From a bacterium (GTDB lineage: Bacteria; Patescibacteriota; JABMPQ01; JBDRIV01), in the NCBI GenBank assembly GCA_043815505.1, contig JBDRIV010000002.1:116784-180783 (forward strand): a stretch of DNA of 64,000 nucleotides, written 5' to 3'. Positions 42,876 to 60,426 of the stretch are shown piece by piece (positions within the stretch are counted from its first letter, which is position 1; each line of letters opens with the position of its first letter). Below the pieces are notes generated by a model. It was not told the origin of the DNA. It searched no databases and saw only the letters and a list, made by a program, of their open reading frames with translations. The position numbers and the translations under genes were made by a program.

Positions 42876-43188
42876 CGTTTTTCCTCCTTCATAAACGTGG
42901 GGGTTTATGATATAGGAAGATTTGTTCAGTAGTACAATATTATTGTACAACTGGGTATATAATCAACTCTGCCCTTATTTATGGGAAGTAGTTGTTATTT
43001 CAGATCATGGATTTTCAAGTGAGCAACTTAGAATATTATACTATATAAGCTGAAATGTCAAGTATTTGGAGCAAGAAAAAGAGCGGAAATCACGAGATTT
43101 CCGCCCCTGCTTAGTCAGTTGTTACTTTCTTGGTTTTTTGAAATTGGTGAATCGAACTTTGCCAGAAACACCTTTTCCTCCAGAATCT

Positions 43189-44499: not shown

Positions 44500-44672
44500 A
44501 ACAATTCTCCTTATAGTGGTATTTACAAAATTGAATATGTGAAAGGGCAAATTGCCAGAATTAGCAACGGTTTATAATATCATTAATTATAGAATTGGCA
44601 AGTAGCAGTCTTTTTAAAAAAAAGAGAGTCAAAATAATCTAGACTCTCGTATATGTTTTGAAATAAGTGTCA

Positions 44673-45392
44673 TTAAATCCAAGCTCGATCTGAGTGAAAT
44701 CTTTGTCCGATAAAATCTGTCACTTCCTTCGAAGATCTACAGTTTGCGATAATATGTGGAATTTTTTCAGCTGAGAAAATGAATTTCTTACCTGTTCCTT
44801 TCAATTTTATCACAGCTAAAAGATTACTCACAAGACCTGATTCACAAAAACAGATATTGAGATATTCTGGAGGAATATTATTATTGACAAAACCACCAAG
44901 AACCTCCCAAATAGATGAAAAATATATGTAAGAAGAATTATCTGTGTCTATTTTGTGTCCAAGAATACAGCTATTTTTTTTTCTGTTATTGGCGGTACCG
45001 TCAAAAGCAATTATGACAGTCAACTGTTGGTCTGTAAATACAGTGTTGGGGTACTTCACGTCATTATTTTTTGCAGAACAGGGTGGCGTGCTATGAATAT
45101 GTGTGATTCCTCCATTATCGTTTTGTATATGCCCAATTGAATGAGTGAAGTTTCTCAAATAGTATTCACAAGTTAAGCAAAGAATTAAAATCCCGAAAAT
45201 GATAATTCCAGATGTTGTGGATGTGTAGGGTATGTTAGCAGTTTTAGCTAAGTAGAAAAAGAACCCAAGTACAATCACCCAAAGTATTCGCCGAATCAGA
45301 TTGGTACCAGATAAAGGTTTGAATTTTGTGATTCTTGAAATGAAGTTTGTACAACTGGAACAAATCGGATAGTCTTTTCCCGCTTTACGCAT
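44673..45392 (-). CDS. membrane protein of unknown function with an N-terminal CSSC motif
   Basis: MRKAGKDYPICSSCTNF with an AGGAGG SD, two TM helices, C-terminal soluble domain. Architecture parallels 42003..42875. Confidence 0.45.
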   Translation of the reverse strand: MRKAGKDYPICSSCTNFISRITKFKPLSGTNLIRRILWVIVLGFFFYLAKTANIPYTSTTSGIIIFGILILCLTCEYYLRNFTHSIGHIQNDNGGITHIHSTPPCSAKNNDVKYPNTVFTDQQLTVIIAFDGTANNRKKNSCILGHKIDTDNSSYIYFSSIWEVLGGFVNNNIPPEYLNICFCESGLVSNLLAVIKLKGTGKKFIFSAEKIPHIIANCRSSKEVTDFIGQRFHSDRAWI

Positions 45393-46462: not shown

Positions 46463-47404
46463 ATGGCTACGCAAAATTCATTAAAAGGGCTTATCCAAGA
46501 CTTCTTGGATTATTTAGAAGGGGAGAAAAACTGCTCTCCTTTAACAACCAGAAATTATCATTCTTATTTGACCGATTTTGCTAACTCTATGAAAGTTTCT
46601 CAGCCAGCCGAGATAACAGATAGTAAGTTGCGAGATTATCGAGTTGTTTTAAATAGAAGAAAAAATTCTAAGGGAGATTATTTAAAACATTCTACCAAGA
46701 ATTATTATTTAATTGCTCTTCGTTCCTTTCTGAAGTATTTAGCCAAGCGCGATATAAAAAGTCTAATGCCTGAAAAAATTGAGTTGGCCAAAGTGGCTGG
46801 ACGTGAGATAGATTTTTTGGAGCCAGAAGAACTCGCTCGTTTGCTTGATGCACCAGATGCAGGAACAATGCGTGGATTGCGTGACAAAGCAATTTTAGAA
46901 CTGCTGTTTTCCTCTGGTTTGCGTGTCAGTGAATTATGTTCACTTGATACTAAGAAAATAAATTTGAAAAAAGATGAATTTTCTATTCGCGGAAAAGGAG
47001 ATAAGTTGCGGGTCGTTTTTCTTTCTAACACCGCTAAGTACTGGTTGAAAAAATATAATGATGCCAGACAAGATGGTTTATCTCCACTATTCATAAGCTA
47101 TCCAAAAGGGAAAGCTAGTCTCGATGTTTCCGATCCAGAAAAAAGAAGATTAACCCCAAGGAGTATTCAAAGGTTAGTTCATAAATATGCTCTTATTGCT
47201 GGAATTACAACCAAGGTTACACCCCATGTTTTGCGTCATAGTTATGCCACAGATTTACTAATGGGTGGTGCTGATATTCGTTCGGTGCAGGCCATGCTTG
47301 GGCACGCTTCTATTACCACTACGCAAATGTATACGCACATTACTGACAAAAGATTACGCGAAGTTTATAAGAAGTTTCACGGGAAAACTAGAAGAGGCGA
47401 GTAG
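46463..47404 (+). CDS. tyrosine site-specific recombinase, XerC/XerD family
   Basis: N-terminal core-binding domain. Catalytic R (LRDKAILELLFSSGLRVSEL), the HVLRHSYATDLL box and LGHASITTTQMYTH with the Tyr nucleophile. Confidence 0.8.
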   Translation: MATQNSLKGLIQDFLDYLEGEKNCSPLTTRNYHSYLTDFANSMKVSQPAEITDSKLRDYRVVLNRRKNSKGDYLKHSTKNYYLIALRSFLKYLAKRDIKSLMPEKIELAKVAGREIDFLEPEELARLLDAPDAGTMRGLRDKAILELLFSSGLRVSELCSLDTKKINLKKDEFSIRGKGDKLRVVFLSNTAKYWLKKYNDARQDGLSPLFISYPKGKASLDVSDPEKRRLTPRSIQRLVHKYALIAGITTKVTPHVLRHSYATDLLMGGADIRSVQAMLGHASITTTQMYTHITDKRLREVYKKFHGKTRRGE

Positions 47405-47539
47405 TCTTTGTTCAGAGTTTGTCGAGGGGTTGTTAATTAGATGCTATAATGTTATAGTAACGCGGAAATTATTTGGCATATGGCATATAGCAAATGGCAA
47501 ATAGTACATAATCGTTTACAATTCAAACGAGGAGAGCAT

Positions 47540-47568
47540 CCAGCCCCAGTTTGAAAAACTGGAGCTGG
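47540..47568. repeat. hairpin-only mini copy of the inverted-repeat element
   Basis: CCAGCCCCAGTTT-GAAAA-ACTGGAGCTGG. Confidence 0.6.
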
Positions 47569-47570
47569 AG

Positions 47571-47760
47571 AGCACGGATTCAAATTGAGAAGAGGAATAA
47601 ATACAGTCGAAATTAGGAGCGCAGGTGAACGTAGTGAACCGAGCACGCGTTTAAATTGAGAGTAGGAATAGTACAGTCGAAATTAGGAACGGAAGGCGAA
47701 GCCTGAGTACGGATTTCGACTGAGAGGAGGAGCAATACGGAGGTCGGTGAAGTTCAATTA
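47571..47760. repeat. about 70-bp imperfect tandem repeat, 2.6 units
   Basis: Units AAATTGAGAAGAGGAATAAATACAGTCGAAATTAGGAGCG... and AAATTGAGAGTAGGAATAGTACAGTCGAAATTAGGAACGG..., each bounded by GAGYACGGATT. Confidence 0.8.
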
Positions 47761-47770
47761 ATTGAACTTC
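47749..47770. promoter_or_regulatory. perfect 22-bp palindrome GAAGTTCAATTAATTGAACTTC, 25 nt upstream of tRNA-Arg
   Basis: Read directly; fully self-complementary. Confidence 0.8.
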
Positions 47771-47795
47771 GTAGACCGCAGTATTGGTCCGACGA

Positions 47796-47867
47796 GTCCC
47801 CATAGTTCAACGGATAGAACGAGAGCCTTCTAAGCTCTAGATGTAGGTTCGATTCCTACTGGGGATA
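47796..47867 (+). tRNA. tRNA-Arg (anticodon TCT)
   Basis: GTCCCCA acceptor, D-arm GTTC/GAAC, anticodon loop CTTCTAA, T-arm GTAGG-TTCGATT-CCTAC. Confidence 0.8.
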
Positions 47868-47946
47868 GGGATAATTATATGTAAGCAAAACTGTTTAGCT
47901 AAACCCTGTTGTAGACATTGATATAGTATTCTGATATGCTTTAAAC

Positions 47947-48411
47947 ATGAATGTAAAATGCAAGATTTGCTCAAAAGAGTTTTATGTAAAACCATCCCAT
48001 AAAAAAATGGGTTGGGGAAAGTTCTGTTCATTAAAATGTGCATATATTGCAAGAAGAAAAGGTAAGGAATTAGATTGCGCAGAATGTGGAAAGAGAATAT
48101 ACCGATCCCCGAAGCAACTTAAGAAGTCTAAGTCACAATTATATTTTTGTACAAAATCATGTCATCAGAAGTATAAAAATAAGTTTATGTCTGGCGAGAA
48201 TCATCCGCAGTGGAAGTACGGGAAATATTACTATCTTCCGCTAATGAAGAGAAAGAAGAAAATGATATGCATGAAATGTAATGAAAAAAATAAAAAAGTT
48301 TTGGTTGTTCATCATATAGATAGAAATAGAAAAAATAATGAATTGGAAAATCTGATTTGGTTATGTAGGAATTGTCATTATCTAGTTCATCAGTATAAAG
48401 AAAAGTTTTGA
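47947..48411 (+). CDS. HNH endonuclease with N-terminal Cys-rich zinc ribbons
   Basis: Four CxxC pairs in the N-terminal 100 aa; C-terminal HHIDRNRKNN...LCRNCH HNH motif. Confidence 0.65.
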   Translation: MNVKCKICSKEFYVKPSHKKMGWGKFCSLKCAYIARRKGKELDCAECGKRIYRSPKQLKKSKSQLYFCTKSCHQKYKNKFMSGENHPQWKYGKYYYLPLMKRKKKMICMKCNEKNKKVLVVHHIDRNRKNNELENLIWLCRNCHYLVHQYKEKF

Positions 48412-48418
48412 ACGATAT

Positions 48419-48490
48419 GGTGGCCATAGTTCAATGGTAGAACACTAGCTTGTGGCGCTAGCTACGAGAGTTCGATTCTCTCTGGTCACC
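48419..48490 (+). tRNA. tRNA-His (anticodon GTG) with encoded G-1
   Basis: G-1 plus GTGGCCA acceptor, anticodon loop TTGTGGC, discriminator C73. Confidence 0.8.
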
Positions 48491-48602
48491 CGGCAAAGAC
48501 ATCTTCGTAACAGAAGGTGTTTTTGTTTTGGATAAAAAAGGACCTGCGGACCGAGTTGGTCGCGCAGGCCTTGCCAAATTCATGTTGCATGTTGAGAAAG
48601 TA

Positions 48603-49133
48603 TCAATAATCAGAAGTGATAAAGAAACTAACCCATCCAATTGCAGCAATGATAAAGGATATCCACCACCAGAGCAGAATTCCAACCTCACTTGGAAACC
48701 AGACGATGTGAGCTGGTAGAGTAACCTCAGTACCAGACTTTCCTTCGTCAAGGACAACTTCCCTGATCTTCATCAGAGCATTGTCTCTTACGAGTTGGGA
48801 GACCGATTCTGGGTCCTCTACGATCCTTGCAAGAAGATCACTGACGGTTTCGTTGGCCTCATTGATCTTGCGATACCAGATGCCAACATCCGTGACCTTA
48901 AGTTTGTTGAAAAAGAAGGCCGAGTTGCCGCTGGTGAGTCCTTGTTCTTCCATTTTCTCGATAGCGGCTGAAAGAAATTCGTTGGCCATCTCGAGGTTTG
49001 GAGCATCGCCAGCGTTTTTGAGGTGGTCACCGATCTCACTGTGAAAATCGTACCACCAGCTGATGCTGCATACCCCGACGATAATCAGGGACACTGCACC
49101 GACGATTCCTAATGCAAGAAATAATCCTCTCAT
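48603..49133 (-). CDS. membrane protein, hypothetical (N- and C-terminal TM helices)
   Basis: ORF of 176 aa with TM helices at both ends; higher GC than the genome average. Confidence 0.45.
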   Translation of the reverse strand: MRGLFLALGIVGAVSLIIVGVCSISWWYDFHSEIGDHLKNAGDAPNLEMANEFLSAAIEKMEEQGLTSGNSAFFFNKLKVTDVGIWYRKINEANETVSDLLARIVEDPESVSQLVRDNALMKIREVVLDEGKSGTEVTLPAHIVWFPSEVGILLWWWISFIIAAIGWVSFFITSDY

Positions 49134-49519
49134 CGTACTTCTCCTTTTGAAGGAGTGGATTGTCTATTGAAGACAAGCCACTCGGGTTTGAAAACATTGC
49201 TTGCCTACATTCGCATTTGAATCCGAACACAATGAACAAGACTTTGTAGACTACAAAACTTCCCCATATTTGTCAATAATTCTCTCTTGACAGAGTTATT
49301 AATTCCTGCTACATTACTTAGTCCAGTTTTGCTATACTAAAAGTGTAAATGTTTAAAGGTTAGAACTTTTACAAATTCAAAGTAAACACTTTGACATAAA
49401 CATGAACAAACAATATTTGTTTCAATTAAGGAGGTGAAGATTGTTGACATCTTGGTTTTATGAAGTTCTCATTCTTTGAAATCTGGCCCGCCTAGGGCTT
49501 TACAAAAAGGAGACGAAAA

Positions 49520-52009
49520 ATGAAAAGCTGTAATGCCATTCTGTGTCTCGTGGTGGTTTTTCTGCTGTCTGTTATGACAGCGGATGCCGCAGTTTTGCGG
49601 GTCCCTCAAAGCTATCCGACCATCCAGGTTGCTGTTGATGCCTCCGTGGATGGCGACACGGTGCTGGTGGACGAAGGCACCTACACTGGTGTTGGTAATC
49701 GTGATATCTATATCGAAAGGAAAAAGATAACTGTAAAGTCGGTGTCTGGACCCACTAAATGTATTATCAACTGCGAGAATAAAGGTCGTGCCTTCATGAT
49801 CTATCTCGAAGGTGATGACTCTCCAACTATCAATGGGTTTACCATTGTAAATGCATCCAAGTTTGTTGGTGGTTTCTATGATGATGGCGGTGGAATCTAT
49901 TGCCACTATGTCAATCCAACCATCAAAAACTGCATTATTATGAATTGCAACGGTGGTAATGGCGGTGGAATTTATCTCGATAATTCCAGTCCAGTCATTC
50001 AAGATTGTGTGATCGCGAACTGTGAAGCTACAAGATTTGGCGCTGGAATCTCTGGTCACAGCGAATGCTCTCCAAAAATTTTGGATTGTATCATTGACAA
50101 TAACAAAACGAACGATGGTGGCGCTGGAATTGCTATTGGTTATAATGGAAAGCCAGAAATAACCAATTGTATTATTACCAACAATCGTTCTAAAGATTCA
50201 TATGGTGGTGGTATCTCAATTTATCAAGATGCTGTTGGAAAAATTCAAAAATGTACAATCATTGGGAATTACTCTTACTCTGGAGGTGGAGGAGTTTACG
50301 TTGGTGGTTGTGGTATTGGTGAAAACCAATTAATCGAGAATTCCATTGTATGGGGAAATAGTGCAGTATCTCAAGGTGACAACATCTTTACCTATAATGA
50401 AGAAGACCTCATCGTCAAATTCTCTTGCATCGAAGGTGGTTGGGCTGGTCAGGGTAATATTAGTCAGAATCCGCAGTTTCGAGATGGTCCTCCCGACAAT
50501 GCATGGAAAAACACTCACTGGCCGTCAGGTTTGAATTCTGACGCCTACTATCTGAAACAAATCGCTGCTGGTGATGCAGTAGATAGTCCCTGTGTAGATG
50601 CCGGTAATCCCGGCACAACTGTTACAGGAACTACGCGCAACGATCAGGTTATCGATTCTGGCACGCCCGATATGGGTGCTCATTACAGAGAATTTTTCAT
50701 CGGATACAATCCGACTAACATGATTTTCACAGCTTCAGAAGGGGAAATCCCCGCGCCACAGTATGTGGAAATTTGGCCGGACGGTGATGGTTCAACTGGT
50801 ATGAACTGGACAGTTAGCAAATATGTTCCATGGATTTCTCTTGATCCGCTTTCTGGAACTTCAACAGGAGAAGTTGATCAGGTGGCAGTGAATATCGACA
50901 CTAGCAACATGAGTAGAGGAACCTACTCAGGCAAGATTTATGTTAATGCCAATGATGCTTTTTGGCCTACAGAAAGTATCCTGATTACAGTTAGCATCGG
51001 TGAAACGGTCACGGGCCCAAAGCTCGTTGTGGGGCCTGGCCCCGCTTACGGTAATGATTCTGTTGTTCGAGTTTTTCCTCCGCAGCAGAATGCAACCTAT
51101 GAATTGGAGTTTGCCGCTTACGGCGTGCCCCATTATGGGGTCAACGTTACGGTAGGGAATTTCGGTGGTGGCGACATGATCGTTACCGGCGCTGGCCCTG
51201 GGGCTGTATTTGGTCCTCATGTTAGAGGATTCTTGCCCAACGGTATTCAACTACCTGAGTTTTCCTTTCTCGCTTACGGAACCAACAAATGGGGTGTAAA
51301 CGTCGCTTGTGGTAATCTGGATGATGACGAAGCAGATGAGATTATTACTGGCGCTGGCCCAGGAGAAATTTTTGGCCCGCACGTGCGGGCGTGGAACTAT
51401 AATGGTTCTACTATTTCTTCCATAGCGAAGGTAAGCTATTTCGCCTATAAAACCCCTAAATGGGGAGTCAACGTAGCGGCTGGTGATGTGGATGGTGATG
51501 GTTACGACGAAATCATTACCGGCGCAGGACCAGGTGCGGTATACGGCCCTCACGTCCGGGGTTGGGATGTGGACTCTGATTCCGCGGTAGCCATACCAGG
51601 AATCAACTTCCTTGCTTATGGAACCAATAAGTTTGGTGTTAATGTGACAGTCGGAGATGTCGACGGCGACGGCTACGACGAAATCATTACCGGCGCTGGT
51701 CCAGGATCTGTGTTTGGAGCTCATGTGCGTGGTTGGAACTACGACGGCGCGCAAATCACAGAACTTCCTAACTTTTCCTTCTTTGCTTGGTCGCCTAACG
51801 ATATACGTTATGGCGCCAAGGTTTATGCCGGTGCTGATTTGGACGGTGACGGCAAAAATGAACTGATCGTTGGCGGTGGTCCTGATCCGAATATGAATAC
51901 CGAGATCAAAGCCTACCGCTATAATGGAAGTATCGTTGAATGGTTCTCCATCTACGAAACTTTCGTCGGATATACGAAGGGAACCAGCATCGCTGCTGGT
52001 AACTTCTAA
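49520..52009 (+). CDS. secreted right-handed beta-helix (pectate-lyase-like) protein with C-terminal FG-GAP/VCBS-like beta-propeller repeats
   Basis: Signal peptide. PbH1-like repeats (NCIIMNCNGGNGGGIY, CVIANCEATRFGAGIS). At least five repeats of GVNV..GD.DGDGYDEIITGAGPG..FGPHVRGW with DxDxDG Ca-binding-like loops. Strong AAGGAG SD. GC about 10 points above surroundings. Confidence 0.75.
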   Translation: MKSCNAILCLVVVFLLSVMTADAAVLRVPQSYPTIQVAVDASVDGDTVLVDEGTYTGVGNRDIYIERKKITVKSVSGPTKCIINCENKGRAFMIYLEGDDSPTINGFTIVNASKFVGGFYDDGGGIYCHYVNPTIKNCIIMNCNGGNGGGIYLDNSSPVIQDCVIANCEATRFGAGISGHSECSPKILDCIIDNNKTNDGGAGIAIGYNGKPEITNCIITNNRSKDSYGGGISIYQDAVGKIQKCTIIGNYSYSGGGGVYVGGCGIGENQLIENSIVWGNSAVSQGDNIFTYNEEDLIVKFSCIEGGWAGQGNISQNPQFRDGPPDNAWKNTHWPSGLNSDAYYLKQIAAGDAVDSPCVDAGNPGTTVTGTTRNDQVIDSGTPDMGAHYREFFIGYNPTNMIFTASEGEIPAPQYVEIWPDGDGSTGMNWTVSKYVPWISLDPLSGTSTGEVDQVAVNIDTSNMSRGTYSGKIYVNANDAFWPTESILITVSIGETVTGPKLVVGPGPAYGNDSVVRVFPPQQNATYELEFAAYGVPHYGVNVTVGNFGGGDMIVTGAGPGAVFGPHVRGFLPNGIQLPEFSFLAYGTNKWGVNVACGNLDDDEADEIITGAGPGEIFGPHVRAWNYNGSTISSIAKVSYFAYKTPKWGVNVAAGDVDGDGYDEIITGAGPGAVYGPHVRGWDVDSDSAVAIPGINFLAYGTNKFGVNVTVGDVDGDGYDEIITGAGPGSVFGAHVRGWNYDGAQITELPNFSFFAWSPNDIRYGAKVYAGADLDGDGKNELIVGGGPDPNMNTEIKAYRYNGSIVEWFSIYETFVGYTKGTSIAAGNF

Positions 52010-52027
52010 ATCCAAAAAGTAAATCTC

Positions 52028-52070
52028 AGGGTGAGTTGCATAGCAATATGTAACTCACCCTTTTTCTTTA
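52028..52070 (+). terminator. Rho-independent terminator
   Basis: AGGGTGAGTT-(14 nt)-AACTCACCCT followed by TTTTTCTTT. Confidence 0.6.
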
Positions 52071-52217
52071 TTTAAAATGCGCGCATCGATGGAGTGAGTG
52101 CGCGCAAAGCAAAGCTGGCTAGCAGAAAACATGGAGAGTTTCTCTGCGATTGGAGTTAAGCTATATTTGGGTTGGTATTCATTGATGTGGTAGATCAGGT
52201 AGATTTCTCCACATTTT

Positions 52218-52472
52218 TTATTTTGGTAGATCAAAGAGCATGCCGAGTTTGGGTCGGTGTTTGACGATGTGCTGAGTGAGCAGGATGCTTTTGATGAGAT
52301 GTTCCCGGTTTTCACCGCTTTCTTCTCCATAAATGATGTCAGGATCATTCATGAAGTCACATGAGATATCGTGATTTTTACCTAAATCGACACCACATTT
52401 CGGGCAGTTTTCTGGAAGTTGAAAGTCTTCCGGAATCTCAATCTCTAACTGACCATGAACAAAGCTTGTCAT
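52218..52472 (-). CDS. small hypothetical protein with a CPKCG motif
   Basis: 84-aa ORF with a strong GAGGGGG SD 8 nt upstream; higher-GC patch. Confidence 0.4.
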   Translation of the reverse strand: MTSFVHGQLEIEIPEDFQLPENCPKCGVDLGKNHDISCDFMNDPDIIYGEESGENREHLIKSILLTQHIVKHRPKLGMLFDLPK

Positions 52473-52594
52473 TTTTCTACCCCCTCTATATAAAAGTTAA
52501 AAGAACAAAGTTTCACATCAATATACTAATTATATTATATAATGTCAAAAATTACACGTCTACTATTATTTCTGAAATTTGCTAAGATAAATTT

Positions 52595-53134
52595 ATGTCA
52601 AAACAATGGAAAAAATTAAGTTCTAAAAAGGTTTATGAAAATCCTTGGATGAAAGTATTTGAGGATGATGTTGTTGGTCCCGACGGAAAGAAAAGTATTT
52701 ATGGTTACATAGATAAACCTCATTACGTTTTAGCTATTCCAATTTATAAGAAAAAATTCTATTTAGTTGAACAATATAGATATCCAGTTCAGGAAAGAGG
52801 AATTGAGTTTCCACAAGGTGGGAATGAAAATGGGCGTGAACCTCAAGAGCAAGTTAAAATAGAATTGCAAGAAGAAACTGGTTTAATCACAAAAAAGATA
52901 AAAAAACTTGGATTTTTATGGTTATCAAATGGACATTCAACTCAAGGATTTTACATTTATTTAATCCATTGTAAAAAGAAGGGAAAAACCAATTTTGAAG
53001 GAACAGAAGCAGATATGAAAATTAAAAAATATTCTAAAAAGAAATTAGAAAAAATGTTAGCAGATGGAACTATAAAAGATTCTCCTACCGTTGCTGCTTA
53101 CGGATTATATTTGCTCAAAAAGAAAAGGACTTAA
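52595..53134 (+). CDS. NUDIX hydrolase
   Basis: Nudix box GGNENGREPQEQVKIELQEETGL. Confidence 0.6.
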   Translation: MSKQWKKLSSKKVYENPWMKVFEDDVVGPDGKKSIYGYIDKPHYVLAIPIYKKKFYLVEQYRYPVQERGIEFPQGGNENGREPQEQVKIELQEETGLITKKIKKLGFLWLSNGHSTQGFYIYLIHCKKKGKTNFEGTEADMKIKKYSKKKLEKMLADGTIKDSPTVAAYGLYLLKKKRT

Positions 53135-53158
53135 GATAAGTCCTTTAAAATGTGCGGT

Positions 53159-53560
53159 TTAAGCTGGTTGATCCAGTTTATTTTTTTCGATTTCGTGATG
53201 CAGGTTTTCAGCCAGGGCGTTAACAACACTGCGAACATTGCTAGTGGTGATGTCACCTTTGTAGTGAACGCTCATAGGTCTTTTATACTCACCTTCTCTG
53301 AAAAAAGGAAAAGCAACACTCAACCTATTCTTTTCTCCAAATCTGAAAATGAGTTGGGTGCAGAAATGACTACGAACGTCAATTTTGGAGCTAACATTAC
53401 ATTCATAAGATTCTATCGGTCTGGCAATTCTTTTAAACAAAACAGGGTCATGTTTGTAGAGTCTATTAAACTCAGCTTCTAGAATTCTCAGTTCATGGGG
53501 ATGCTTTGGTGCGCTCCAAAATTGGAATTTGTCCATAAGATTATACGGAGTTCTACCCAT
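53159..53560 (-). CDS. hypothetical protein (133 aa)
   Basis: AGGAGGAACGATA SD directly upstream; globular composition; higher-GC patch. Confidence 0.45.
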   Translation of the reverse strand: MGRTPYNLMDKFQFWSAPKHPHELRILEAEFNRLYKHDPVLFKRIARPIESYECNVSSKIDVRSHFCTQLIFRFGEKNRLSVAFPFFREGEYKRPMSVHYKGDITTSNVRSVVNALAENLHHEIEKNKLDQPA

Positions 53561-53714
53561 TATCGTTCCTCCTATGTGAAAGATTTCAATTACGATCTAT
53601 ATTTCGAACTTTAAAGATTGCCACAAGAATTTCAAATAGTCAAACAAAAAAAGCCCTCGCAGAAAGAGCTTATAATAATATAATTCTGCGAAGGCCGTGT
53701 GGCGATGCCTTGAG

Positions 53715-53906
53715 TCAGCTAAATTCGAAGAATCTTGACATGACGATATCGTCGACTCTGATGCTGAAGCGAGAAATTGTTGGCGATTGGTTTTCCAAAC
53801 CACCATTTTCACTGAGATGCTTCAATGCACCCGTGACCTCCTCGTCAGAAAACCTTTCCGGATTTTCCAAAATATTTCTTGCTGCTCTTGTCCTTTCTTC
53901 CTGCAT
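53715..53906 (-). CDS. small hypothetical protein (63 aa)
   Basis: GGGGGTAAGC SD-like sequence upstream; charged helical composition. Confidence 0.3.
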   Translation of the reverse strand: MQEERTRAARNILENPERFSDEEVTGALKHLSENGGLENQSPTISRFSIRVDDIVMSRFFEFS

Positions 53907-54055
53907 CGCTTACCCCCATCATGTTGTTTGAAAGATCAAACTATTACCCTAAAAACACTGATATATTTTTATCATACACAAACCAAAAAGTCAATCCCGC
54001 TTTCAAAAAATATAAATATTTAGTAAAATAACAAACAGATTACTAAAAACAAACA

Positions 54056-54820
54056 ATGAATATTATAACTGCTGAAGCTTCAATTGTTAGAATAATTCAA
54101 GACACACATTGTGTAAAAAGATATCAACTGGAATTTCCCGAATTAAAAGATCTAAATTTTCAAGCGGGACAATTTATAATTCTGTCTTTGCCCGAAATAA
54201 AAGACGAAGAAGACAAGCCAATAAAAAGAGCATATTCAATTGCATCTTCACCTGACATGAAAGATTATTTAGAGCTTTGTATAAAAAACATGGCTACCGG
54301 CGGACTTTCCACTCAACTAAATGATTTACAAGTTGGTGACAAAGTAAATGTGCAAGGACCATTCGGTGCTTTCACTTTACAACACAAACAACCAAAATAT
54401 ATTTTCTTAGCTGGTGGTAGTGGAATTTCTCCTTTAATGAGCATGGTACGTCACATGGCTCACGAAAAAAGGGGTGAAGAAATTCTTTTTTTCTTTTCCG
54501 CTCTAACTCGCTGTGATTTAGTTTATGAAGAAGAACTTCCCGCTTTGGTGAAAGAGTTTCCCAACATCAAACTGATTTTTGGAATTAGTGAAGAAGAATG
54601 GCCAGCCATGTTTAAAGATGCGCCATGGGAAAAAGTGCAAGGTTTATTTAATAAAGACACTTTAGCAAAATATATGAATGGTATAGATTATGAAGCCTAC
54701 ATTTGCGGACCAGAGCCTTTCATAAATGCTATGAAAGATGGATTAGATGCACTTGGTGTGCCAAAAGAAAACGTTCATTATGAAGATTGGGGCACAGCCA
54801 ACAAACAATTAGCCAAGTAA
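54056..54820 (+). CDS. FAD/NAD(P)-binding oxidoreductase (ferredoxin-NADP reductase / PyrK-like fold)
   Basis: Flavin-binding RAYSIAS motif and GGSGISP NAD(P)-binding motif. Confidence 0.6.
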   Translation: MNIITAEASIVRIIQDTHCVKRYQLEFPELKDLNFQAGQFIILSLPEIKDEEDKPIKRAYSIASSPDMKDYLELCIKNMATGGLSTQLNDLQVGDKVNVQGPFGAFTLQHKQPKYIFLAGGSGISPLMSMVRHMAHEKRGEEILFFFSALTRCDLVYEEELPALVKEFPNIKLIFGISEEEWPAMFKDAPWEKVQGLFNKDTLAKYMNGIDYEAYICGPEPFINAMKDGLDALGVPKENVHYEDWGTANKQLAK

Positions 54821-54860
54821 TATAAATTGTGGTATAGTAATAAAAAAGTAAGCAAAACAA

Positions 54861-55367
54861 ATGTCAGAACAAGAAGAAAAAACAATTGATCTAAACAAAA
54901 TTGGCAATGAGCTTTTGTCTTGGGAAGCGAACGAGTTTGTGCAATATGATAGAGATCAAAGTTGGTATTTGGGTGGTGGAATTTTAGCTGTGCTTCTAGT
55001 CATATATTCCATTTTTACCAGCAATTATCTTTTTACTTTGATAATTGCCATGATTGTAGCCGTTGTTTATTTGTACACGCAAAAAAAGCCAGAAAAATTA
55101 AAGGTTGTAATCACAGAAAAGGGAATAGTTTTGAATAAAGAATTTCTTGATTACGAAGATTTAGAAGATTTTTGGATTTTATATAAACCACCCGAGCTTA
55201 AAACTCTAAATATTGGCAGACAAGGTTTTTGGCGACCACATTATGAAATTCAGTTAGAAGATATTAATCCGCTAAAAGTTCGCGAGATTTTGCTGGAATA
55301 TTTGGAAGAAAATGTGGAACGAGAAGAAGGCGGAGTTGATAGAATGTCCAGGAACTTGAAGTTTTAG
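54861..55367 (+). CDS. 2-TM membrane protein, hypothetical
   Basis: ORF with a central hydrophobic hairpin. Confidence 0.4.
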   Translation: MSEQEEKTIDLNKIGNELLSWEANEFVQYDRDQSWYLGGGILAVLLVIYSIFTSNYLFTLIIAMIVAVVYLYTQKKPEKLKVVITEKGIVLNKEFLDYEDLEDFWILYKPPELKTLNIGRQGFWRPHYEIQLEDINPLKVREILLEYLEENVEREEGGVDRMSRNLKF

Positions 55368-55460
55368 TTTGTTTCTTGTAAAGTAGTTTTAGTATCAGGA
55401 ACCATTTTTGGTTCCTTTTACGATAGAAGTGGCAAATGGCACTTTGCATTTATTTTAAGA

Positions 55461-55566
55461 GGAGCCCCGCCCCAGTTTTATAGAACTCAAATGCTTTAAG
55501 TTAAAAATTACTTTTTAGCATTATTGAATTAGATTATATTGAGTTTTGAAAAACTGGGGCGGGGCG
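55461..55566. repeat. inverted-repeat element, copy B, abutting tRNA-Arg
   Basis: GGAGCCCCGCCCCAGTTTT ... 69 nt AT-rich ... AAAACTGGGGCGGGGCG. Confidence 0.8.
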
Positions 55567-55570
55567 ACGA

Positions 55571-55643
55571 GCGCTCGTAGCTCAGCGGATAGAGCATCAG
55601 ATTGCGGATCTGAAGGTCGCAGGTTCGAATCCCGCCGAGCGCA
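55571..55643 (+). tRNA. tRNA-Arg (anticodon read as GCG; ACG is more usual in bacteria)
   Basis: GCGCTCG/CGAGCGC acceptor, D-arm GCTC-AGCGGATA-GAGC, anticodon arm TCAGA-TTGCGGA-TCTGA, T-loop TTCGAAT. Confidence 0.7.
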
Positions 55644-55647
55644 GAAA

Positions 55648-55678
55648 ATATCCACCATGATGGTGGATATTTGTTTTG
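55648..55678 (+). terminator. Rho-independent terminator after tRNA-Arg
   Basis: Perfect palindrome ATATCCACCATGATGGTGGATAT followed by TTGTTTTGT. Confidence 0.7.
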
Positions 55679-55756
55679 TCCAAATTGAAAGAAATTATAT
55701 AGTGGTTATAATTAAAGGAATTTTATTTTGGGTAGTTCTTTAAAAAGGGGGAATAG

Positions 55757-55954
55757 ATGATGATCAAGAATAAGAGAATAAAGAAGGATTCTAATTGCCA
55801 ACCCTGTCCTGAGTGTGGAAGTGAAAATGTAAGCGCTTCCAATATTAAGGACGTTGCTTTTTCCATCCATTATATTGATGATGTGGCAGATTTTCTCTGT
55901 CATGATTGTAAACACGTCTGGCACGGTCAGTATGGATATATGGGGTTAACGTGA
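55757..55954 (+). CDS. small zinc-ribbon protein (CPECG...CHDC)
   Basis: 65-aa ORF with two CxxC pairs and a GGGG SD-like sequence upstream. Confidence 0.4.
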   Translation: MMIKNKRIKKDSNCQPCPECGSENVSASNIKDVAFSIHYIDDVADFLCHDCKHVWHGQYGYMGLT

Positions 55955-55978
55955 TTATGTGAGAGAAGGAGGGAAAAG

Positions 55979-56479
55979 ATGCTTTGCATTATTTCTGACC
56001 AGGGATATCCTAAAGATGGTAATGTGATGGCTAGGGTTGAACTTTATCTTGATAATCCTTTTGAAGGTGGAATTATGATTTTAGGCAAGGACAGTCAAGA
56101 AAAAGAATTCAAACCAAAACATGAGCCTGGAGGATCATATGCTCTTCCATCGGGAAAGCAATTTCGTGTACCCGTAGGAAATCATTCGGTTTTGTATTTT
56201 CCTTTCGAGTTGAATTGTAGTATCGGAACCCAGGAAATTAAAAAGTATGAACATATTGATGACGAATTTTTTCGTCATTTTGACCTGGTTCTGATGGACG
56301 AATTCATGGAACGAATCGAACTCAACGATTCGGAAATCGAAAGGTTTTTCAAGAAGATGGTTATTTGGGGGAGGCTTGAATTGATTGGGGTACTGGCAAC
56401 TCATTTTTGGGGTGAGGTTTATCAGGAGAGAACTCCCGTAGTTGAAGAGTTCTTGAACCGTTTTAGAAAACAAGAATAA
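55979..56479 (+). CDS. hypothetical protein (166 aa)
   Basis: ORF with an AGGAGGGAAAAG SD region; no recognisable motifs. Confidence 0.45.
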   Translation: MLCIISDQGYPKDGNVMARVELYLDNPFEGGIMILGKDSQEKEFKPKHEPGGSYALPSGKQFRVPVGNHSVLYFPFELNCSIGTQEIKKYEHIDDEFFRHFDLVLMDEFMERIELNDSEIERFFKKMVIWGRLELIGVLATHFWGEVYQERTPVVEEFLNRFRKQE

Positions 56480-56488
56480 ATGTACTTT

Positions 56489-56523
56489 GACCCGCAACCA
56501 TGTTGGTTTGCGGGTTTTCGTTT
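56489..56523 (+). terminator. Rho-independent terminator
   Basis: ACCCGCAACCA-TG-TTGGTTTGCGGGT followed by TTTTCGTTT. Confidence 0.65.
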
Positions 56524-56593
56524 GCTGGAAGGTGTAAAAATTGATAAAATCTTATTATGTATATGAAATTATAAGAGAGGATATAATCTTAAT

Positions 56594-56690
56594 GGAGGAG
56601 TGTCAGAGTGGGTTGCAAGCGAACTTGTGGAGCTTGTGACGGGTTGCAAAAGCAACCCTGGCATTTGCGAGATTCAGTTTTTTGCTTAAG
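56594..56690 (+). other. tRNA-Ser-like 5' fragment / small structured RNA candidate downstream of a TATAAT box
   Basis: Begins GGAGGAGTGTCAGAGTGG, matching the tRNA-Ser 5' end GGAGGGGTGACGGAGTGG, but does not fold as a cloverleaf. Contains the GGGTTGC-AAAA-GCAACCC hairpin and ends in a T6 run. Confidence 0.3.
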
Positions 56691-56731
56691 ACGAAGTCGA
56701 GATATAATGTAATCGAGCAAATGAACGGACC

Positions 56732-56932
56732 GGTCTTGTTACCCAAAGCGTGATCCGCCTTTGACAGAAAAACAATTATTTTATTAAAACGTCTTTTCTA
56801 CTGAGTGGAGGGGTGACGGAGTGGACGATCGTGACAGTCTTGAAAACTGTTGTCTCTTCACGGGGACCGTGAGTTCGAATCTCACCCCCTCCGCTCAGTA
56901 GAAAAGTCTTGTCACCCAAAGGGTGATCGCCC
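56732..56932. repeat. cassette: 28-bp direct repeats (GTCTTGTyACCCAAAGsGTGATCsCC at 56732-56759 and 56905-56932) flanking a 15-bp inverted repeat that directly abuts tRNA-Ser
   Basis: IR-L GTCTTTTCTACTGAG (56791-56805) and IR-R CTCAGTAGAAAAGTC (56894-56908) extend the tRNA acceptor helix. Confidence 0.7.
56807..56893 (+). tRNA. tRNA-Ser (anticodon TGA)
   Basis: GGAGGGG/CCCCTCC acceptor, anticodon arm ACAGT-CTTGAAA-ACTGT, long variable arm GTCTCTTCACGGGGAC, T-arm GTGAG-TTCGAAT-CTCAC, discriminator G. Confidence 0.8.
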
Positions 56933-56933
56933 T

Positions 56934-57048
56934 CTGGGCGAAAAACCGGAGTCCCCTCACGGGGACCGTGAGCCTGCCTGTCGTTAGGCGGGTTCGAATC
57001 TCCCTAGCCGCGCCTGTGGCTTGCCGCGGGCAGGCACCCCCTCCGCCA
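56934..57048 (+). pseudogene. chimeric tRNA-derived remnant carrying duplicated tRNA-Ser 3' segments and a CCA end
   Basis: Contains TCCCCTCACGGGGACCGTGAG (the Ser variable arm plus T-stem), an embedded GGGTTCGAATCTCCC T-arm-like unit, and ends CACCCCCTCCGCCA, identical to the Ser acceptor 3' strand plus CCA. No matching 5' half. Confidence 0.4.
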
Positions 57049-57070
57049 TTAAAATATTAATAGCAAAAAT

Positions 57071-57292
57071 ATGTACAAAACAGCAACAAGATGGGTAGCG
57101 ATTATTTTAACCGCTTCCGTAATATTATTTACTTTGATGGCGATATTGGCCATTTGGGACGTACTTGATGGCGACATAGCTTGGAAATCTCTAAGTACAT
57201 TAAGTGTTATTCTTTTTGCTTCACTCATCTCTTTGGTAATCATAAAAATAATTAAAAACAAAGGCGGATCTGATAAAAATTTAGATCTATAG
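57071..57292 (+). CDS. small 2-TM membrane protein, hypothetical
   Basis: 73-aa ORF with two hydrophobic helices. Confidence 0.35.
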   Translation: MYKTATRWVAIILTASVILFTLMAILAIWDVLDGDIAWKSLSTLSVILFASLISLVIIKIIKNKGGSDKNLDL

Positions 57293-57306
57293 ATATAAAC
57301 AACTAA

Positions 57307-58539
57307 ATGCTCATAACAAATTTTCTAATATTTCTAGTTTTAATTTTAGTGTCAGCAGTCTTTTCTGGTACCGAAACGGCTCTCATGACGATTGGTCCTG
57401 CCAAAGTTGAAGCTTTGATTGAACAAAATAAAAAAGGTGCTAAAGCCTTAAAAAGAATAAAGAAAAATACTCATCGTTTAATAATAACAATTTTAATTGG
57501 TAACAATTTAGTAAACATTGCCGCTGCCTCGCTGGCGACAGTGTTTTTTACTGATTTATTTGGATCAAAGGGAGTGGGTATTGCTACAGGAATTATGACA
57601 TTTCTAATTTTGGTATTTGGTGAAATAACTCCTAAAACTTATGCTGCCAATAATGCTGTGAGCTTGTCTCTTATGTTGGCTAAACCAATGGAAGTTCTAA
57701 TAATAACAATTTTACCTTTGGTTATGCTCTTTGAATATATTGCCAAAGGCATGTCATGGTTATTGCGTTCCAAAAAAGAAGATAAACTTTCTGAAGAAGA
57801 AATTAAATCTGTGGTAACCTTGGGACATAAAGAAGGAGTTTTAACTGAAGATGAAGCCGAAATGATTGAAAATGTTTTAGACTTTGAAGACAAAACTGTT
57901 AAGGAGGTAATGACACCAGTTTCTAATGTAAAAATGGTGGATGGCGCCAAACAGCTTTCTGAAGTTGTCGATTATGTGGCAAAAACTCCTCATTCTGAAT
58001 ATCCAGTTTATTTGAATAATAAAAACAATATTATAGGTGCCTTAGATGTTGATGATGTTTTAGAATATGTCAAAGACGATAAAGAAGATGTTTTGGTAAA
58101 AGATATTACGCGGGGTGTATTGCAAGTTACGGAAAAAAAGGAAATTGACGATTTGTTACAAGAACATGAACACGAAGACATGCCGTTAGTTATTGTGACA
58201 GATGATAATGAAAAAGTAATTGGGCTGGTAACTACTGAAGACATTTTAGAGGAAATCGTCGGTGAAATATTTGATAAAAGCGATAGAGAAGATGTGTTGG
58301 TGGAAAAAATTGATGCTAAAACAGCTCGCGTTAGCGCCATGATTCCGCTTGAAGAAGTAAATAAAAAATTAAAATTAAATCTGAAAGGGAGAAAATTTTT
58401 CACTCTAGCAGGCTTCATTCTTCACAGATTAAAACGTATGCCCAAGGAAGGTGAAATTATTAAGTTAAAAAATGCTATAATTGAAGTGGATGAGGTGACG
58501 GGCAATGCTATTGAAAGTGTAAAAATAATTAAGAAATAA
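57307..58539 (+). CDS. CNNM/HlyC/CorC family transporter (DUF21 + CBS pair + CorC_HlyC)
   Basis: 4-TM DUF21 N-domain, tandem CBS domains, C-terminal transporter-associated domain. Confidence 0.8.
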   Translation: MLITNFLIFLVLILVSAVFSGTETALMTIGPAKVEALIEQNKKGAKALKRIKKNTHRLIITILIGNNLVNIAAASLATVFFTDLFGSKGVGIATGIMTFLILVFGEITPKTYAANNAVSLSLMLAKPMEVLIITILPLVMLFEYIAKGMSWLLRSKKEDKLSEEEIKSVVTLGHKEGVLTEDEAEMIENVLDFEDKTVKEVMTPVSNVKMVDGAKQLSEVVDYVAKTPHSEYPVYLNNKNNIIGALDVDDVLEYVKDDKEDVLVKDITRGVLQVTEKKEIDDLLQEHEHEDMPLVIVTDDNEKVIGLVTTEDILEEIVGEIFDKSDREDVLVEKIDAKTARVSAMIPLEEVNKKLKLNLKGRKFFTLAGFILHRLKRMPKEGEIIKLKNAIIEVDEVTGNAIESVKIIKK

Positions 58540-58541
58540 TT

Positions 58542-58934
58542 ATGCCGAGAGAACTTAGAATCAAATGGTTATACTGGACACCGCGAATTTTAGGAATAGC
58601 CTTAACTATATTTGTTACCTTATTTGCTTTTGATGTTTTTGAAGAAGGTTCAGTTTTGGAGAAGTTTGTTGGTTTTCTAATTCATCTTTTGCCCACCTTT
58701 TTAATTTTATTGTTTTTATTTATTTCTTGGAAATGGGATAGTGTGGGTGGCACAATGTTTGTTTGTCTCGGAGTTTATTATATGGTTCTAGTTTGGGAGA
58801 GTTCACCTTACTCTTGGTTGTGGAGTTTAATTTTAGCTGGACCAGTAATGGCTATGGGAGTTCTTTTCATGCTCTCAGCAGTTTACAATAAATCTAAATT
58901 TGAACTTGATTTTCTGCGCCGTTTGAAAAGATAA
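58542..58934 (+). CDS. 4-TM membrane protein, hypothetical
   Basis: 130-aa ORF starting 3 nt after the upstream stop. Confidence 0.4.
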   Translation: MPRELRIKWLYWTPRILGIALTIFVTLFAFDVFEEGSVLEKFVGFLIHLLPTFLILLFLFISWKWDSVGGTMFVCLGVYYMVLVWESSPYSWLWSLILAGPVMAMGVLFMLSAVYNKSKFELDFLRRLKR

Positions 58935-58951
58935 TTAGTAATAAATTTAAA

Positions 58952-59770: not shown

Positions 59771-59841
59771 ATTCTTGACAAAATATTAGAAGACAGTACA
59801 ATGTTATATTGTGCTGTTTTAAATTAAAAAAGAAATCCCCC

Positions 59842-60045
59842 GTGACTTAGGTGGTTCAAAAAGGCAAGGCAGCTTTTGTAGACCAAATCAACTTAAGTTG
59901 CGGGGGAACAGGATAATGTGTCAGAGATTTGGGAAAGAAACGTCGCACGATTTCACGGTTGGAAAATTATACCTACTTGTGAGAAAGTGAGGCAATTGAT
60001 GTGAGCCACGAAGTGGTTCTGCAATAAGCGCCCAAATCTCTGGCA
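59842..60045. other. structured noncoding region with nested long-range inverted repeats (unassigned small RNA candidate)
   Basis: TCCCCCG(59842)...CGGGGGA(59905); CAGAGATTTGGG(59918) ... CCCAAATCTCTG(60031). Confidence 0.3.
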
Positions 60046-60066
60046 ACCAATTCCGAGTATTTTAGA

Positions 60067-60416: not shown

Positions 60417-60426
60417 AATCTTAGGG

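Follow-up and report, generated by a model that had tools for sequence, protein, structure and literature searches.

The window analysed here, a 64-kb stretch of DNA, contains a GC-richer patch; judging by its sequence, the stretch derives from a Patescibacteria (CPR)-like bacterium whose genome is small and AT-rich. The left border of the patch is a tRNA-His (GTG) gene (48420-48491, plus strand; ARAGORN, Rfam tRNA 66 bits), placed directly beside it as an earlier note on this DNA had stated, and beyond the tRNA lie a 176-aa membrane protein gene, an 829-aa secreted protein gene, an 84-aa ORF, a NUDIX hydrolase gene, and ORFs of 133 and 63 aa. GC content amounts to 45.1% in 48540-52100 versus 36.0% in 1-48000 and 35.8% in 54000-64000, which bears out the rise that had been reported for 48.5-52.1 kb. 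In 300-nt windows over 48.4-52.1 kb, GC ranged from 0.44 to 0.52 and dropped to 0.33 in the intergenic spacer at 49.15-49.45 kb, while the highest-GC 1-kb bin of the window was found at 51001-52000 (50.9%). A second block at 53150-53940 had been claimed to reach 45-48% GC, but we measured 39.7%.

The 829-aa gene (49520-52009, plus strand) encodes a multidomain protein, as delineated by Pfam and an AF2 model. A signal peptide (aa 1-24, 49520-49591; an N-terminal hydrophobic helix, then ADA-A) is followed by a right-handed beta-helix (aa 25-315, 49592-50464), a conserved, low-confidence cap/linker (aa 316-395), an Ig/BACON-like domain (aa 396-495, 50705-51004), and, at the C-terminus, a propeller of FG-GAP repeats with six predicted blades (aa 498-829, 51011-52006). 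Pfam matched Beta_helix at 61.1 bits (cutoff 25.9), FG-GAP_3 at 43.5 (26.9), and FG-GAP at 36.5 (22.1); the propeller is modelled as 24 strands with a 57-residue period; and the top Foldseek matches of the model were integrin-alpha propellers. The adhesin- or lyase-like combination of signal peptide, beta-helix, and FG-GAP repeats proposed in the earlier note was thus correct, and its count of at least five repeats with DxDxDG signatures held for the repeats, with six blades in the model, but not for the signatures: only three blades carry the canonical loop (residues 656, 713, and 773; 51485-51502, 51656-51673, and 51836-51853), one loop is degenerate (NLDDDE), and two blades lack it. An AT-rich divergent spacer (49134-49519, 34.7% GC) separates the gene from the 176-aa gene and holds a promoter-like TTGACA-17-TACATT (49287-49315, plus strand) and an AAGGAG Shine-Dalgarno (SD) sequence, whereas an intrinsic terminator, a 15-bp stem and then TTTTTCTTT, lies downstream (52028-52061, plus strand). 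AAGGAG likewise precedes the 176-aa gene and AGGAGG the 133-aa ORF, in line with the strong AAGGAG-type SDs noted before.

Upon scoring GC3 conditional on the amino acids that a gene encodes and on a codon table made from the 64-kb window, which also supplied the background composition, we found the codon-usage deviation for which a check had been suggested. The 829-aa gene ranked first of 55 ORFs (z = +8.7) and the 176-aa gene third (+6.6); the 84-aa ORF reached +3.45 and the 63-aa ORF +3.35, only 3 of the other 50 ORFs exceeded +3, and the 133-aa ORF, the larger one of the second block, was not significant at +1.8. The GC excess of the patch is therefore beyond chance and beyond amino-acid composition. 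Part of it does reflect amino-acid content, as the 829-aa gene also has elevated GC1 (0.528) and GC2 (0.448, the window maximum) and the GC peak falls on its Gly-rich propeller repeats. One could accordingly regard all these genes as native, with GC raised by Gly/Ala/Pro/Val/Asp-rich propeller repeats and by gene-specific codon selection, but we hold this to be quite unlikely, given that the conditional score is positive in every domain of the 829-aa gene (beta-helix +4.0, middle region +2.6, propeller +7.3), that the 176-aa gene scores high though it is not Gly-rich, that the window's housekeeping genes S15, PNPase, and XerC show no high GC3, and that the nearest relatives examined of the 829-aa protein all reside in GC-rich genomes.

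These relatives were drawn from 2028 homologue matches, with 42% identity over the full length and up to 65% over the propeller; weaker named matches were 'right-handed parallel beta-helix repeat-containing protein' entries of Planctomycetota and Phycisphaerae. All five source loci examined had 52-66% GC, with homologue GC3 of 0.55-0.85, and three of the five belonged to contigs 0.3-2.3 Mb long. Individual loci carried a TonB-dependent receptor, a sigma-54 activator, NrfD/cytochrome c3 genes, or a Ser/Thr kinase, and some source genomes showed diderm or large-genome features. Four of the five (L017, L019, L075, and L014) had tandem or clustered paralogues, and the order DUF418 - gene - DnaE was shared between two of these genomes. 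Viral contigs held no relative of the protein. An NJ tree built from the propeller, without support values, nested the window protein within relatives from GC-rich genomes, and the protein's nearest relatives differed between the beta-helix and propeller trees. The N-terminus, signal peptide included, aligned to homologues from residue 1. The FYMINK fraction of the protein was 0.294 versus 0.18-0.29 across 27 homologues, and its 80 departures from conserved consensus residues went to lower-GC codons in 52 cases and to higher-GC codons in 10. On composition and on the carriers of its relatives, the 829-aa gene looks foreign. We infer that it was taken long ago from GC-rich bacteria with an expanded, often tandem family, the donor group being read from genome features and GC alone, with top homologues that carry no taxon names, and that it would since have drifted to the AT-rich composition of its host, short of equilibrium. 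The promoter-like site, SD, and terminator described above serve this gene alone.

As the source is a metagenome-assembled genome and composition shifts abruptly at 48.5 kb, one might also suspect an assembly or binning chimera, in which a fragment of a GC-richer organism was joined into the contig. This is very improbable: the patch lies within a 567-kb contig and has genes of native composition on both sides and in the middle, its intergenic spacer is as AT-rich as the host, its GC of about 46% is far from that of the relatives' genomes, and the AT-directed amino-acid drift in the 829-aa protein would be expected after long residence.

Transcribed divergently from the 829-aa gene is the 176-aa gene (48603-49133, minus strand; hypothetical protein MFH1508697.1 in the annotation). 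Downstream of it (48533-48570, minus strand), the sequence shows a GC-rich hairpin with a trailing T-run that resembles a terminator; a consensus scan missed this hairpin because its stem is bulged. Though among the strongest compositional outliers, the gene had not been singled out in the first reading. Its AF2 model (pLDDT 96.7) runs from a TM helix through a four-helix bundle and a beta hairpin to a second TM helix, which points to a membrane protein that has two TM helices and the four-helix bundle as its ectodomain, and neither a Pfam family nor a PDB fold match was found. The unnamed family comprises 480 representative clusters at E<=1e-3, with a best non-self match of 48% identity, and occurs in CPR-like housekeeping loci, a Woesearchaeota MAG (DPANN), 50 IMG/VR loci, and a 595-kb uncultured phage record. 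Neighbours in IMG/VR include RNA ligase, UvsX, primase/helicase, SbcC, exonucleases, and integrases; this phage link is weakened, however, because some IMG/VR contigs of 0.3-0.7 Mb could be small cellular genomes that were misclassified. Across the family's loci we found no conserved neighbour and no beta-helix partner gene, which argues that the 176-aa gene arrived separately from the 829-aa gene. It looks foreign on composition and on the carriers of its relatives, and it was most likely acquired independently via a phage or other mobile element.

The NUDIX hydrolase gene (52595-53134, plus strand; Pfam NUDIX 27.3 bits, cutoff 21.1), with 29.6% GC and a native-looking GC3 z of -2.4, interrupts the patch between its two blocks and does not count among the foreign genes. 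The small ORFs around it look like separate units. The 84-aa ORF (52218-52472, minus strand; annotated hypothetical MFH1508699.1) has its own GAGGGGG SD and a promoter-like site matching 11/12 consensus positions (52548-52520, minus strand), and a search for relatives found none, viral or phage ones included. The 133-aa ORF (53159-53560, minus strand), whose sole match among 5.8 billion proteins was itself, and the NUDIX gene have a bidirectional terminator-like hairpin (53124-53146) in common. The 63-aa ORF (53715-53906, minus strand) has its own SD and a downstream terminator-like hairpin (53671-53651), but its coding status is doubtful: its GC1/GC2/GC3 profile is flat (0.44/0.41/0.45), it is missing from a protein collection that contains its annotated neighbours, and its RNA fold z is -3.3, terminator hairpin included, so that it may not be a gene. 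The toxin-antitoxin or defence role once considered for these ORFs found no backing, as none matched Pfam, NCBIfam, PHROGs, or PADLOC and none sits in a two-gene operon; they would rather be lineage-specific orphans.

Could the patch nonetheless be a single genomic island or decayed prophage at tRNA-His that carried in all five ORFs, with small genes of toxin-antitoxin or defence type among them? It does abut the tRNA, a gene for a phage-type HNH endonuclease (PHROG 1271, 4.6e-18) is found just upstream, virus-catalogue contigs commonly hold the 176-aa family, and GC3 is raised in four of the five ORFs. We nevertheless consider a single island unlikely. The patch contains no integrase, and the nearby XerC-type recombinase is housekeeping, because its synteny with S15, NYN, and PNPase is conserved in distant relatives: the best XerC relatives, at 53-54% identity, come from Saccharibacteria and Paceibacterota MAGs that share the PNPase-NYN-S15-XerC order with the window, which also speaks for a CPR-like host. 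The tRNA-His 3' end has no second copy within the window at up to 3 mismatches, and we found neither an att repeat nor a flanking repeat of >=14 nt. Phage and plasmid records gave no DNA match, the NUDIX gene splits the patch, the viral contigs lack the 829-aa family, the small ORFs lack database matches, and the 176-aa and 829-aa families never co-occur. Hence, of the horizontally acquired segment proposed earlier, the foreign look of the two large genes stands, while the single segment does not. We favour, as the probable account, a mosaic variable region downstream of tRNA-His whose genes arrived separately, with the 829-aa gene as an old horizontal acquisition; this would be ordinary piecemeal gene acquisition and no new system.

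As to function, the 829-aa product is probably exported via its cleavable signal peptide and would serve extracellularly in calcium-dependent binding, with the propeller as the binding module and the Ig-like domain bridging to the pectin-lyase-fold beta-helix. A binding propeller joined to a beta-helix would suit a glycan- or cell-surface-binding protein (adhesin), possibly a glycan-cleaving one, and in an episymbiont it could plausibly act at a cell-cell or matrix interface. A less probable possibility is that the protein is chiefly an extracellular polysaccharide-degrading enzyme (a pectin-lyase-fold lyase, hydrolase, or epimerase) with a carbohydrate-binding propeller, which would make it a scavenging enzyme and not an adhesin. 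Its fold neighbours are indeed mostly enzymes, yet its Pfam match is the generic Beta_helix and not a CAZy-type family, solved structures gave no sequence-level match, the invariant helix-body residues are Gly, Asn, and Ile (structural: Asn ladder, turns) and not a charged catalytic cluster, and the GG[GA][IV] rung motifs look like Pmp-type adhesin repeats. The homologue alignment, which is unreliable across the repeats, showed no invariant acidic or basic cluster in the helix body, and on sequence and model together no feature appears to discriminate adhesin from enzyme.

Compared with known systems, the patch resembles tRNA-linked genomic islands in that its composition deviates and that it directly follows a tRNA gene, but differs from them in having no integrase, att-type direct repeats, or mobility genes, in being interrupted by a native gene, and in the differing origins of its genes. 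Integrin alpha FG-GAP propellers have seven blades, against six predicted here; relative to these and to bacterial FG-GAP/VCBS proteins, including Acinetobacter Rhombotarget A (PDB 9cdu/9cdv), the 829-aa protein keeps the calcium motif in only three blades, and its chain ends at the last propeller strand, without GlyGly-CTERM or other C-terminal anchor. Pectin-lyase-fold enzymes (PL9 Pel9A, PL6, AlgE4, and alginate lyase 6kfn) and beta-helix adhesins (PfbA, Vag8, and chlamydial Pmp repeats) share only 12-21% identity with it, and unlike them it has no family-specific Pfam/NCBIfam match, recognisable catalytic cluster, or autotransporter barrel. Far closer are beta-helix proteins with a C-terminal FG-GAP propeller from GC-rich environmental bacteria (P0008, 797 aa, and P0015, 791 aa; 42% identity over 97-99% of the length), which have the signal peptide, beta-helix, BACON-like domain, and propeller in the same order and share the cap motif SPC.DAG...D.G.H and the blade motif GAGPG..GPHVRGW. 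Genes of this type have 51-67% GC in their source genomes, where they are often tandemly duplicated and are syntenic between two genomes, whereas the window copy lies in a small genome of 36% GC, is single within the window, and has AT-shifted codons and amino acids.

The compositional anomaly to the right of tRNA-His (GTG; 48420-48491) is genuine at synonymous sites, yet discontinuous. Against 36.5% GC for the whole window and flanks of 36.0% (left, 1-48000) and 35.8% (right, 54000-64000), GC reaches 45.1% at 48540-52100, as the earlier note had claimed for a first GC-rich block, drops to 33.1% at 52100-53150, and is raised again at 53150-53940, where we measured 39.7% rather than the 45-48% claimed for a second block. 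In 300-nt windows, GC is 0.44-0.52 over ~48.4-52.1 kb, down to 0.33 in the intergenic spacer at 49.15-49.45 kb, and only 0.27-0.31 across 52.45-53.2 kb, with the NUDIX gene (52595-53134, plus) sitting mid-patch. To express codon usage independently of protein composition, an expected GC3 was derived for each ORF (n=55) from the amino acids it encodes, using a codon table built on the remaining ORFs outside the patch. The resulting GC3 z scores are +8.7 for the 829-aa ORF (49520-52009, plus), +6.6 for the 176-aa ORF (48603-49133, minus), +3.45 for the 84-aa ORF (52218-52472, minus), +3.35 for the 63-aa ORF (53715-53906, minus), and +1.8 for the 133-aa ORF (53159-53560, minus), while the NUDIX gene scores -2.4. 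The GC excess of the 829-aa gene, whose GC2 of 0.448 is the window maximum, is partly protein-driven because its propeller contains many Gly, Ala, Pro, and Val residues; its GC3 z is positive in every part (beta-helix +4.0, middle region +2.6, propeller +7.3). As the z scores of S15, PNPase, and XerC are about zero, high GC3 is not a housekeeping-gene signature in this window. Only three ORFs outside the patch exceed +3, two of them in a block at 42.0-44.6 kb (+7.1 and +4.1).

These two ORFs (42003-42950 at +7.1 and 43189-44550 at +4.1) belong to a stretch of four minus-strand ORFs (41108-45392; 258, 315, 453, and 239 aa) located between PNPase and NYN-S15-XerC. In the two nearest relatives (L001, L002), PNPase and NYN-S15-XerC are contiguous, without these ORFs between them. 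None of the four matches Pfam, NCBIfam, or PADLOC, and their sole PHROGs match is at chance level (E = 0.012). We regard 41108-45392 as a second foreign-looking insertion, compositionally as strong as the patch.

The relatives of the 829-aa protein point to where its gene came from. A homologue search returned 2028 matches, among them full-length relatives with 42% identity (P0008, P0015) and a second set to which the propeller alone shows 60-65% identity (P0003-P0006, P0010-P0012); the named matches, which are weaker, belong to Planctomycetota and Phycisphaerae, and the family has no relative in IMG/VR. Five source loci that we looked at have 52-66% GC, with a homologue GC3 of 0.55-0.85, and three of the five lie on contigs of 0.3-2.3 Mb. 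Across these loci, we found genes for a TonB-dependent receptor, a sigma-54 activator, NrfD/cytochrome c3, and an ECF sigma factor with a Ser/Thr kinase. Paralogues are tandem or clustered in three source loci (L017, L019, L075), another FG-GAP gene is nearby in a further one (L014), and two source genomes share the order DUF418 - gene - DnaE. In a neighbor-joining (NJ) tree of the propeller, calculated without support values, the window protein is nested inside the homologue set, and the beta-helix tree places it elsewhere, a discord that is a weak hint of domain shuffling. The FYMINK content of the window protein (0.294) is the highest among the 28 aligned sequences, and its 80 departures from conserved consensus residues, most commonly D to N and V to I, lead to lower-GC codons in 52 cases and to higher-GC codons in 10. 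GC-rich bacteria are the home of this family, which has expanded in them, and the window holds a single AT-shifted, still GC3-rich copy. From this pattern, we infer an old horizontal acquisition that has been partly ameliorated, and likewise the direction and age of the transfer.

The gene forms an independent transcription unit, bounded by a promoter-like site (TTGACA-17-TACATT) and a 15-bp-stem terminator, and it encodes an exported protein with a defined order of domains. A cleavable signal peptide, with its n-, h-, and c-regions, is recognizable at the N-terminus (MKSCNAILCLVVVFLLSVMTADA/A), which aligns with homologues starting at residue 1 and forms a helix (residues 2-19) in an AF2 model built from 28 homologues (mean pLDDT 79). 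The deposited protein MFH1508698.1 has 787 aa and starts from a GTG, codon 43 as counted from the ATG at 49520 (49520-49645), with the loss of the signal peptide, while the longer form has both this peptide and an AAGGAG Shine-Dalgarno (SD) sequence. A by-product of the analysis is hence a public gene start that is probably wrong, lying 42 codons late and hiding the export signal.

Downstream of the signal peptide, Pfam Beta_helix (PF13229; pectin-lyase fold) matches residues 82-234 at 61.1 bits (cutoff 25.9), and the three-stranded fold of a right-handed parallel beta-helix is present, modeled at 25-310 with a pLDDT of about 85-95. The segment at 316-395 has low AF2 confidence, yet contains many invariant residues. 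It is followed by an Ig-like sandwich (400-493) that is best described as 'BACON-like': PF19190 BACON_2 reaches 21.6 bits, under its cutoff of 25, and Foldseek matches a 106-column segment of BoGH5 chain 3zmr (E = 1.2e-3). Residues 500-829 fold into 24 strands that make up six four-stranded blades, marked at the DNA level by repeats with a 171-nt period and recognized by FG-GAP_3 (43.5 bits, cutoff 26.9) and FG-GAP (36.5 bits, cutoff 22.1). Three blades carry canonical calcium-type loops (DVDGDG or DLDGDG; residues 656, 713, and 773), and a fourth loop is degenerate (NLDDDE, near residue 600); the DxDxDG loops of the propeller are predicted to bind calcium. The protein has no match to solved structures at the sequence level and no C-terminal anchor.

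We propose that the 829-aa protein would work outside the cell, where the propeller would offer a binding platform stabilised by Ca2+, and the groove of the beta-helix would bind, and perhaps cleave, a polysaccharide or surface polymer. We favour binding as an adhesin over catalysis, because a family-specific catalytic signature, which in pectin-lyase-fold enzymes such as PL6, PL9, and GH28 would be a Ca-binding Asp cluster plus a Lys/Arg base or a catalytic Asp triad, is not visible; a CAZy-type match is likewise missing from Pfam and NCBIfam, and the invariant columns of the helix body consist of G, N, and I only, in an alignment that is unreliable across repeats. The fold neighbours of the protein are mostly enzymes, however, and for this reason we keep an enzyme as the less likely alternative to the adhesin.

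The 176-aa protein, annotated as hypothetical, has a different history. In an exhaustive HMMER search, its family comprised 480 representative clusters at E<=1e-3, of which 207 reached E<=1e-10; the best non-self match has 48% identity, lengths are kept at about 165-180 aa, and none of the Pfam models matched any of 60 family members. The AF2 model (pLDDT 96.7) begins with a long transmembrane (TM) helix that continues into a four-helix bundle, followed by a beta hairpin and, at the C-terminus, another TM helix; a PDB fold search with this model returned just generic helical-bundle and BRIL-fusion matches. Homologues occur at a CPR-like locus of 33% GC full of ribosomal/RecA-type housekeeping genes, at a locus of 62% GC, in a Woesearchaeota MAG amid many small ORFs, in a 595-kb uncultured phage record, and on 50 IMG/VR contigs of 24-59% GC, where the larger neighbours include RNA ligase, UvsX, SbcC, primase/helicase, exonucleases, and integrases. 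These homologues share no conserved neighbour, and beta-helix or FG-GAP genes are absent from their surroundings. We therefore rejected a co-transfer of the 176-aa and 829-aa genes as a cassette; the 176-aa gene stands alone, is associated with mobile elements, and came in separately from the 829-aa gene. As an unnamed family of at least 480 clusters with a very confident predicted fold and no Pfam model, it could be catalogued.

Two metagenome contigs (L021 and L022, ~7001-7528) have one and the same 176-aa homologue and agree in the genes downstream of it, but differ entirely upstream, where one has ribosomal/RecA housekeeping genes and the other an MmeI-type methyltransferase with an SNF2 helicase. 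In these contigs, the family member is at a rearrangement or insertion junction.

The suggestion that the small ORFs serve toxin/antitoxin or defence functions found no support. Pfam, NCBIfam, PHROGs, and PADLOC gave nothing beyond chance-level matches (E = 0.02) for the 84-, 133-, 63-, and 176-aa products, and the first three have no match in phage records either. Neither the 84- nor the 133-aa product has a relative in viral contigs, and the latter matched itself only among 5.8 billion proteins. An SD-like sequence precedes each of the three ORFs; in addition, the 84-aa ORF has a promoter-like site to itself, and a terminator-like hairpin goes with the 133-aa ORF and another with the 63-aa ORF. 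None of them belongs to a two-gene operon. The 63-aa ORF is doubtful as a gene: the protein collection includes its annotated neighbours, under consecutive accession numbers, but not the ORF itself, and its codon-position GC is flat, without the usual GC1>GC2 coding pattern. Its region (53645-53945, minus) ends in a clean terminator hairpin, has a somewhat more stable fold than shuffled sequences (z = -3.3, with the terminator counted in), and could be a small non-coding RNA rather than a protein gene.

As in a tRNA-associated island, the deviant composition lies directly beside tRNA-His. An island-borne integrase with flanking direct repeats, as in att-type insertion, was not found: 48.5-54.0 kb encodes neither a recombinase nor an integrase, the 3' end of tRNA-His does not recur even when up to 3 mismatches are allowed, and the patch is flanked by neither direct repeats of at least 14 nt nor inverted repeats. 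Comparing 48500-54050 by blastn with phage and plasmid collections gave no match that would point to a phage or plasmid origin of the patch DNA. The XerC-type recombinase gene (46463-47404) was rejected as an island integrase, as its gene order is conserved with distant relatives. Upon using it as a synteny anchor in GTDB species genomes and JGI metagenomes, we obtained Saccharibacteria and Paceibacterota MAGs as best relatives, at 53-54% identity and with none closer in either collection; the order PNPase-NYN-S15-XerC is common to the window and these loci, and because of this conserved synteny, XerC is a housekeeping gene. We treated the host as a small-genome, Patescibacteria-like bacterium. 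The patch genes are absent within 10 kb downstream of XerC in these relatives, which, at 53-54% XerC identity, are too distant for the absence to count. Between tRNA-Arg(TCT) and tRNA-His lies a lone HNH endonuclease gene (47947-48411, plus) of native AT-rich composition, with TRASH-like zinc-finger matches and PHROG 1271 'HNH endonuclease' as best PHROG (4.6e-18), which may be a free-standing homing-type endonuclease. Overall, the most fitting description of the region is a variable stretch, rich in tRNA genes, in which foreign genes accumulated piecemeal.

The spacer between XerC and tRNA-Arg(TCT) (47520-47795, plus) is purine-skewed with a GC of 0.45, and contains an imperfect direct repeat (47602-47621 / 47672-47691, 19/20 identical, ~70 nt apart) and a 31-nt palindrome. 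Its predicted RNA fold, at -91.6 kcal/mol, is far more stable than those of shuffles, at -60.7 +/- 4.3 kcal/mol (z = -7.1). The spacer has no Rfam match (E<=1) and its repeat core has no exact match in viral contigs; it could represent a structured RNA not described before, or else a tRNA leader. A 19-nt motif, TTTGAAAAACTGG(A/G)GC(T/G)GG, occurs as the 3' arm of a hairpin on the plus strand, at 47550-47568 upstream of tRNA-Arg(TCT) and at 55545-55563 upstream of tRNA-Arg(GCG). The latter copy, part of a 27-nt inverted repeat (55464-55490 / 55539-55565), stops 8 nt short of the tRNA. Rfam searches of the whole window (gathering threshold) and of 47380-49560 (E<=1) returned only tRNAs and chance-level matches. 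Two of the tRNA-like matches, next to tRNA-Gln on the plus strand (60067-60140, 47.8 bits; 60345-60407, 36.8 bits), were not called by ARAGORN and may be divergent or degenerate tRNAs.

The acquisition of surface proteins by reduced symbionts via horizontal transfer is well known, as are beta-helix/FG-GAP proteins, and our findings on the patch leave the understanding of how such regions arise unchanged. Less ordinary are two things: the 176-aa family, which has no name, and the RNA-like element with its strong predicted structure at 47520-47795. If true, the account of the 829-aa gene adds another case of a reduced, host-dependent bacterium widening its surface proteome via horizontal transfer, and points, in a little-known lineage, to a specific protein as a candidate for attachment or glycan handling. 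Going further, one may picture a symbiont that took its beta-helix/propeller protein from the lineage it lived on, together with a 176-aa family acting at the symbiont/phage-host interface. The window bacterium would possibly be an episymbiont of GC-rich bacteria with many paralogues, and the 829-aa protein possibly a host-derived module used for attachment to host cells or matrix, while the 176-aa family, common to CPR bacteria, DPANN archaea, and large phages, could act in, for example, superinfection exclusion or envelope remodelling. We hold this joint picture to be very improbable.

Among known systems, the 829-aa protein differs from the integrin-alpha FG-GAP propeller, which has seven blades, in that its AF2 model has six. 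It carries six GG[GA][IV] motifs, recalling the GGA[ILV] motifs that, with FxxN, make up the repeats of chlamydial Pmp adhesins, but has no Chlam_PMP match, and, in contrast to autotransporter and Pmp adhesins, its C-terminus is a propeller instead of a beta-barrel translocator.
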